Source: a phage | Sequence record: OZ335963.1 | Direction: 5' to 3' (one strand) | DNA length: 64,000 nt | Shown here: in pieces, positions 41,871 to 42,326 of the stretch | How the letters are laid out: every line of letters starts with the position of its first letter | Numbering within the stretch: the stretch's first letter is position 1 | Program-made: the position numbers and the translations under genes | The notes under the pieces: model-generated | Seen by the model: the letters and a program-made list of their open reading frames with translations, nothing else | Database searches by the model: none | Told to the model about the DNA's origin: nothing

Positions 41871-42326
41871 TTATTTTAAATCATCTGCCCAATCGAGTTT
41901 AAGAGGCTCTTTATATTCACGATCTAGTACGACCGGAATTTGTACATCACCGCTAAATGATAAGGGCCCAACATTATAAGACAATGTTATATGCGGTGTG
42001 TAATCATCAAAATCATGTGTAGCACCTAGTGCCCGCGCATACATGTGTCGACAGCGCAGATATTCAGAATCTAGCACAAGTACAAGAGTCGATCCATCTT
42101 GTGTTTTCCATACTTCTAAATGTCCAGAAGAAGCTACTTCAAAACTTCCGCTTGATGGAACATACGGAACATTTACTCTTGAATAACATATGGTCGAATG
42201 AATTTTTTCTCTAGGAACTGGATTAGGAACACGTAAAGAGCGCTGGAGTTCTTCCAGCGCATCAAGTGTTAATTCTGAAAACTTAGCTGCTACATAAAGA
42301 CCCGTTGAAAAGTCTTTAAATTCCAT
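41871..42326 (-). CDS. 57B: 2H-phosphoesterase family protein at T4 57B position (Acb1, cyclic-oligonucleotide phosphodiesterase)
   Basis: 151 aa; two H-x-[ST]-x motifs (HSTI near residue 43, HITL near residue 112); position between ipI and 57A. Confidence 0.7.

Follow-up and report, generated by a model that had tools for sequence, protein, structure and literature searches.

The question raised by this locus is whether a 151-amino-acid open reading frame beside the internal-protein genes of a phage encodes the anti-CBASS nuclease Acb1, and whether it forms with those neighbours one anti-defence island in which every gene has an early promoter of its own, as had been proposed in a sequence-only reading. 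The window, by which we mean the whole 64,000-nucleotide stretch of phage DNA analysed (OZ335963.1), carries the ORF on the minus strand at 41871-42326 (456 nt, 151 aa in the ORF listing). On the opposite (+) strand the same interval holds only short ORFs of 47-61 aa, all without support. Over 24 kb around the gene the sequence shares 95-98% identity with many Tequatrovirus genomes, and the window is therefore T-even phage DNA. A search against Rfam over 36000-45000 returned ten tRNAs as its only hits, with no structured RNA at the ORF or near it.

The translation contains the two H-x-T motifs picked out in the sequence-only reading (K-I-H43-S-T45-I and P-H112-I-T114-L). It matches Pfam PF23474, 'Anti-CBASS protein Acb1', with 202.7 bits (E = 2.6e-60; curated cut-off 27 bits), residues 8-149 spanning positions 1-144 of the 144-position profile, and the PDB entries 7T26/7T27, Acb1 of Erwinia phage FBB1, with E = 4.1e-62, scores that chance could not produce. 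When aligned to the fetched records the product was 100% identical to the 57B proteins of T4 (from its second Met), T6 and RB14, and the tetrad H43, T45, H112 and T114 of this 2H-phosphoesterase anti-CBASS nuclease is invariant across T4, T6, RB14 and FBB1 Acb1. The catalytic histidines had been said to sit at the positions of those in T4 gene 57B; the alignment to T4 Acb1 bears this out, with neither histidine lost and H43 and H112 falling on T4 H44 and H113. The 2H phosphoesterase fold and its C-terminal lid are recognisable by sequence alone, from 68% identity to chain 7T26 and a lid region reaching W146/D148. At the DNA level the 456 nt differ from T4 at 7 sites, from RB14 at 7 and from T6 at 3, with no amino-acid change, which is the pattern that would be expected under purifying selection. 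A tblastn search with Acb1 matched 1471 phage records, 499 with an identity of ≥99%, from phages whose hosts include Escherichia, Klebsiella, Acinetobacter, Vibrio and Aeromonas. Among the analyses run, none produced evidence contradicting the identification. We put the probability at about 0.96 that 41871-42326 is the acb1 gene of a T-even phage, the last gene of a 1-57A-57B unit and a neighbour of the early internal-protein cassettes of a published island.

The start codon of acb1 could also be placed. Its ATG overlaps the TAA stop of gene 57A (42326-42329, minus strand) by one base (TAATG). In T4 the junction reads ...GAA TGA TGG... and 57B is annotated from one Met earlier, giving 152 aa, whereas in the window, as in T6, it reads ...GAA TAA TGG... 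and the 57A stop is TAA. With TAA in place of TGA the upstream ATG of T4 is gone, and translation therefore begins at what is the second Met of T4. RB14 has the TGA stop of T4, yet its 57B is annotated from the second Met. Together these junctions suggest that the second Met is the functional 57B start in the window phage, T4, T6 and RB14 alike.

The enzyme itself is well characterised. A cGAMP-degrading activity was purified from T4 lysate and traced to gene 57B (Hobbs et al. 2022, Nature 605:522, PMC9117128). T4 Acb1 (NP_049750) cleaves 3'3'-cGAMP, cUA, cAAA and cAAG and shields the phage from CBASS, the H44A/H113A double mutant serving as inactive control, and the structure of FBB1 Acb1 is that of a 2H phosphoesterase with an HxT/HxT tetrad of H44, T46, H113 and T115 (PMC9117128). 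From its identity to T4 Acb1 we infer the same anti-CBASS chemistry for the window protein. It would act as a small, metal-independent 2H phosphoesterase that binds these AMP-containing CBASS signals and cuts the 3'-5' bond 3' of adenosine, with acid-base catalysis on the HxT/HxT tetrad. Because the signals would be cleaved, the CBASS effectors would never be activated and the infected cell would survive until the phage cycle is complete.

Public annotation frequently assigns this protein family another role. PHROG 755 is labelled 'RNA ligase', a product name repeated in many RefSeq phage records, and Acb1 shares the 2H phosphoesterase fold with LigT; moreover, the tRNA cluster about 2.2 kb from acb1 is compatible with a role in RNA repair. 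The product could on these grounds be read as a LigT-like 2'-5' RNA ligase or RNA 2',3'-cyclic phosphodiesterase acting on RNA or tRNA ends. Against this, its sole Pfam match is Acb1, no LigT or 2',5'-RNA-ligase family was found at E ≤ 0.01, and NCBIfam gave no match for Acb1 (nor for Ip5, IPI or a 171-aa ORF described below). The identical T4 protein was, moreover, purified through its degradation of cGAMP and cleaves cyclic di- and trinucleotides. RNA ligation as the primary function is thus very improbable and was rejected; the label, which has no assay basis, was inherited from similarity at the level of the shared 2H fold. A secondary activity on RNA 2',3'-cyclic ends is compatible with these results. 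That the gene is a decaying or inactive copy has a probability close to nil, since neither the length of the ORF nor the tetrad shows any loss, the product matches the active T4 enzyme at 100% of its residues and the differences from T4, RB14 and T6 are all silent, which refutes decay at the sequence level. We also rejected Acb1 as a capsid-targeted, injected protein: a six-frame regular-expression search for the internal-protein leader finds ipI, Ip5, ipII and ipIII only, and MEFKDFSTG, at the N-terminus of Acb1, belongs to the folded domain, the alignment to 7T26 beginning at residue 8.

As to its transcription, acb1 follows gene 57A (42326-42568, minus strand; tail-fibre assembly chaperone, Pfam GP57, E = 6.6e-49), which in turn follows gene 1 (42568-43293, minus strand; dNMP kinase, Pfam DNMK, E = 5.5e-107), the first gene of the 1-57A-57B unit and syntenic in T4, RB14 and T6. 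In T4 two middle, MotA-dependent promoters have been mapped here, with starts at 75393 (P1) and 74877 (P57A) (Hinton 2010, Table 1, PMC2988021). Alignment carries the T4 P1 start to 43312 of the window. The P1 counterpart (43312-43346, minus strand) has the MotA box TTTAATGCTTCA at 43346-43336 and a TGT-TATAAT -10 element at 43324-43319, both identical to T4, and a predicted +1 at 43312. The T4 P57A start likewise falls at 42796, and the P57A counterpart, which lies within gene 1 (42796-42829, minus strand), is identical to T4 in sequence, with the MotA box ATTTGCTTTA at 42829-42820, the -10 element TAAATT at 42808-42803 and a predicted +1 at 42796. A promoter scan found no cassette promoter between 57A and 57B and no TG-extended promoter preceding acb1, and a repeat and motif search found no cassette copy upstream of 42326; the stop codon of 57A runs into the start codon of acb1 and leaves no gap between the two genes. 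This overlap, together with the position after P1 and P57A, makes acb1 the last gene of 1-57A-57B. We infer from conservation with the mapped T4 promoters that acb1 closes a middle-transcribed unit as its final cistron. It would be transcribed from the MotA/AsiA-dependent P1 and P57A and by any read-through from upstream, and the unit would end at a hairpin within the cassette that follows. 57B is absent from the main text of the time-resolved omics paper on T4. One TATAAATA late-promoter motif lies inside gene 1 (42924-42931); the motif is not enriched in the window (15 found against 11.2 expected).

Downstream of acb1 the organisation is of another kind. Three intergenic repeats of about 72 nt, all on the minus strand, lie directly upstream of Ip5 (the 57B-Ip5 cassette, 41799-41870), ipI (the Ip5-ipI cassette, 41469-41540) and trna.4 (the ipI-trna.4 cassette, 41105-41180). 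In each, a 17-nt spacer with TG separates (G)TTTACA from TACTAT or TACCAT, giving predicted early promoters at 41857-41829 for Ip5 (TTTACA-17-TACTAT with TG), 41527-41499 for ipI and 41161-41133 for trna.4. An 18-nt motif just upstream of the cassette promoters was found 5 times in the window against 0.23 expected. Two more near-copies of the TTCACAAAG(Y)TGTTTACA motif lie outside the ipI locus, at 22213-22230 and 37081-37098 (minus strand), and may be further promoters of the cassette type. A generic sigma-70 scan was not enriched over shuffled sequence (16 found against 13.5 expected), nor was a terminator scan; the promoter calls therefore rest on the conserved cassettes and the mapped T4 promoters and not on the scan.

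Judged as PeSL elements, that is, a strong -35/TG/-10 promoter with an overlapping stem-loop, the cassettes have the promoter in three cases out of three and the stem-loop in two. In the 57B-Ip5 cassette a 13-bp hairpin overlaps the promoter (approximately 41848-41819, 22 nt past the acb1 stop), and its RNA folds at -14.8 kcal/mol (z = -2.65). It is followed by AAAAUUAAUU, with no U-run, and would therefore be a weak intrinsic terminator at best; an attenuator or 3' stabiliser is more likely than a strong terminator. The ipI-trna.4 cassette has an intact TAGGGT/ACCCTA hairpin (-17.4 kcal/mol, z = -2.63). The Ip5-ipI cassette folds no better than its shuffles (z = +0.38) and has lost the stem-loop. 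An alignment of the cassettes of T4, T6 and the window revealed that the hairpin arms occur in two compensating versions: TAGGGT/ACCCTA, found downstream of Ip5 in T6 and upstream of trna.4, and GATGAG/CTCATC, found downstream of 57B in T4, T6 and the window. The Ip5-ipI cassette joins a T6-type left arm, AGGGT, to a T4-type right arm, CTCATC, and the same AGGGT...CTCATC hybrid is present in RB14. Across the three genomes compared it looks like a recombination scar left by the stacking of Ip5 and ipI. A crossover within the loop between a T6-like genome with 57B-Ip5 and a T4-like genome with 57B-ipI would yield such a hybrid, which fits the published cassette-shuffling model.

The genes behind these promoters are small. 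The ipI gene (41181-41468, minus strand) encodes the 95-aa precursor of IPI*, with a match to Pfam IPI_T4 (PF11634; E = 2e-53, 178.7 bits against a cut-off of 25) over residues 20-95. Its leader, MKTFKEFTSTTTPVSTITE, ends in I-x-E before the mature chain and is removed after E19; the chain in PDB 2JUB starts at residue 20 and matches residues 20-95 with 75 of 76 identical (E = 1.5e-44). Over its whole length the product is 99% identical to T4 IPI, with one amino-acid difference. The extra leader-bearing gene that had been noticed beside ipI is indeed present, and is Ip5 (41541-41798, minus strand), an 85-aa candidate internal (injected) protein which belongs to PHROG 3499, 'internal head protein' (E = 1.2e-49), and is 100% identical to Ip5 of RB14, T6 and RB15. 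Its leader, MKTFKEFATKTTITE, was found by a regular expression for MKT[FY][KQ]EF... followed by an I/L-x-E protease site, the gp21 cleavage rule of T4 head maturation. Both Ip5 and ipI start with MKTFKEF...ITE, the capsid-targeting leader of T-even internal proteins (described in PMC12373910). The series is closed by trna.4 (40919-41104, minus strand), a predicted membrane protein of 61 aa (PHROG 1692, E = 6e-35) with 0 amino-acid differences from T4, RB14 and T6.

Besides these genes, the six-frame leader search of the window finds a second internal-protein locus on the minus strand, consisting of an ipII-like gene of 100 aa (32248-32550) and an ipIII-like gene of 191 aa (32592-33167), with the leader MKTY(Q/K)EFI. 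The window phage therefore encodes at least four leader-bearing proteins. In many phages a paralogue of Ip5, about 48% identical, is found beside the lysozyme gene e.

A possible role for Ip5 is suggested by its company. Once injected, IPI inhibits GmrSD, a type IV restriction enzyme of E. coli CT596, and Ip1-3 are specific GmrSD inhibitors, Ip2 and Ip3 acting on other GmrSD subtypes; a 2025 screen in which ten further ip genes were tried against new GmrSD variants turned up no new target (PMC12373910). A single-sequence AlphaFold prediction folds Ip5 into a two-helix hairpin (pLDDT 79, pTM 0.49). Foldseek matches of the model in the PDB were generic coiled coils and helical hairpins, none at E ≤ 0.001, and so give no functional lead; a PDB sequence search with Ip5 gave no meaningful match. 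The leader and the locus suggest a putative role in counter-defence. On these grounds, and by analogy with Ip1-3, Ip5 might be an injected inhibitor of some further host defence, for example a GmrSD subtype beyond those addressed by Ip1-3, with the hybrid cassette recording the stacking of inhibitors behind acb1; we hold this tentatively, at somewhat less than even odds.

We compared the arrangement with those of Acinetobacter phage Berthold (Lazarusvirus), Klebsiella phage ValerieMcCarty04 (Jiaodavirus) and Aeromonas phage 60AhydR15PP (Tulanevirus). All three keep the gene order 2-3-1-57A-57B and a stop-start overlap of TAATG or TGATG, and the genes 3' of acb1 differ in each. In ValerieMcCarty04 a leader-bearing gene (MKSYQEF...) overlaps the acb1 stop; no leader-bearing gene follows acb1 in Berthold or 60AhydR15PP. 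The ValerieMcCarty04 gene (L005:2453-2836) is annotated as a 127-aa 'hypothetical protein', and its start, MKSYQEFLMETEA, is an internal-protein leader, so that the adjacency of acb1 to internal-protein genes reaches Jiaodavirus, there with an unrelated internal protein. Since order and junction are kept and the downstream genes differ, the link of acb1 to 57A is a stable one, and acb1 borders a variable region whose first genes are frequently, though not invariably, internal-protein genes.

These results bear on the proposal that 41181-42326 is one island of counter-defence genes, each, acb1 included, with an early promoter of its own. In its favour, an early-promoter cassette precedes each of Ip5 and ipI, an anti-defence function is proven for Acb1 and IPI, and the position of acb1 next to ipI has already been described as an anti-defence island (Hobbs et al. 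2022, PMC9117128). The claim of individual early promoters holds for the Ip5, ipI and trna.4 cassettes but fails for acb1, which has neither a cassette nor a TG-extended promoter, whose ATG overlaps the 57A stop and upstream of which the mapped T4 promoters are middle promoters. Moreover, acb1 stays with 57A across genera while internal-protein genes come and go. The counter-defence cluster stands for acb1 and ipI; for Ip5, which has no demonstrated target in the ten-gene ip screen (PMC12373910), such a role is a conjecture from leader and locus. One island of uniformly early, uniformly counter-defence genes is therefore unlikely. The published acb1-ipI island would instead consist of two parts, a conserved gene of a middle operon and a set of shufflable early cassettes, each combining an early promoter with a gene and, in some cases, a hairpin, in the series Ip5, IPI (the GmrSD inhibitor) and trna.4.

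Beyond trna.4 lies the tRNA region. Ten tRNA genes (Arg, Asn, Tyr, Met/Ile-CAU, Thr, Ser, Pro, Gly, Leu and Gln) occupy 38811-39642 on the minus strand, packed too tightly for a segB homing-endonuclease gene, as in RB14. The T4 tRNA stretch is unlike that of the window in that segB is present and Asn and Tyr are absent. Between tRNA-Gln and a trna.2-like gene there is a 171-aa ORF (39729-40244, minus strand) of PHROG 2290, 'unknown function', with no Pfam or NCBIfam match. No gene occupies this position in T4, T6 or RB14. Relatives of the ORF occur in 524 phage records; in an Aeromonas phage one of these relatives (L006:3350-3841) lies a few genes past acb1.

Nothing essential about Acb1 is new here, be it the gene, the enzyme, its mechanism, its structure or its neighbourhood. 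As a discovery the result carries little weight, Acb1 being the founding characterised anti-CBASS nuclease, in biochemistry and in structure, and identical here in sequence. Its value is for annotation, because many public records say 'RNA ligase' or 'hypothetical protein'; these names persist for Acb1 orthologues in many of the RefSeq, PHROG-derived and GenBank records listed, and only one among the Acb1 records listed names a cyclic nucleotide phosphodiesterase. What has been clarified is the setting of acb1, in a conserved middle-transcribed unit bordering shufflable internal-protein cassettes. Moreover, Ip5 emerges as a candidate for screens of injected anti-defence proteins.

The closest known system is T4, whose Acb1 (NP_049750.1) has the same 151 residues and tetrad, the same place after 57A and the same upstream P1 and P57A. 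Acb1 of Erwinia phage FBB1 (PDB 7T26, apo; 7T27, with 3'3'-cGAMP) is an orthologue from a phage of another host genus, identical at 68% of 141 aligned residues and sharing both HxT motifs and the C-terminal lid region with the window protein; it is the source of the structure and not of the in vivo work. T4 IPI/IPI* (PDB 2JUB) has the same 19-residue leader as the window protein, and the single change in the mature part, V to I, is conservative. Unlike T4 ipI, however, that of the window has Ip5 between it and acb1. The identical Ip5 protein occupies the same position after 57B, with the same leader, in RB15, T2, T6, RB14 and RB32 (IP-locus polymorphism of Repoila et al. 1994, as cited in later papers; GenBank Z35082), and the repeats of about 70 bp that those papers credit to the same study of the IP locus correspond to the cassettes of the window. 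T6 pairs Ip5 with Ip6, whereas the window phage, RB14 and RB3 pair it with ipI. Lastly, the cassettes resemble the PeSL cassettes of T4-type phages (Arbiol et al. 2010, PMC2839356), in which a strong early promoter of sigma-70 type and an overlapping inverted repeat likewise flank small accessory genes. The stems of RB49 PeSLs are typically GGGG/CCCC, whereas those of the window are TAGGGT/ACCCTA or GATGAG/CTCATC, and one of the three window cassettes is a stemless hybrid.
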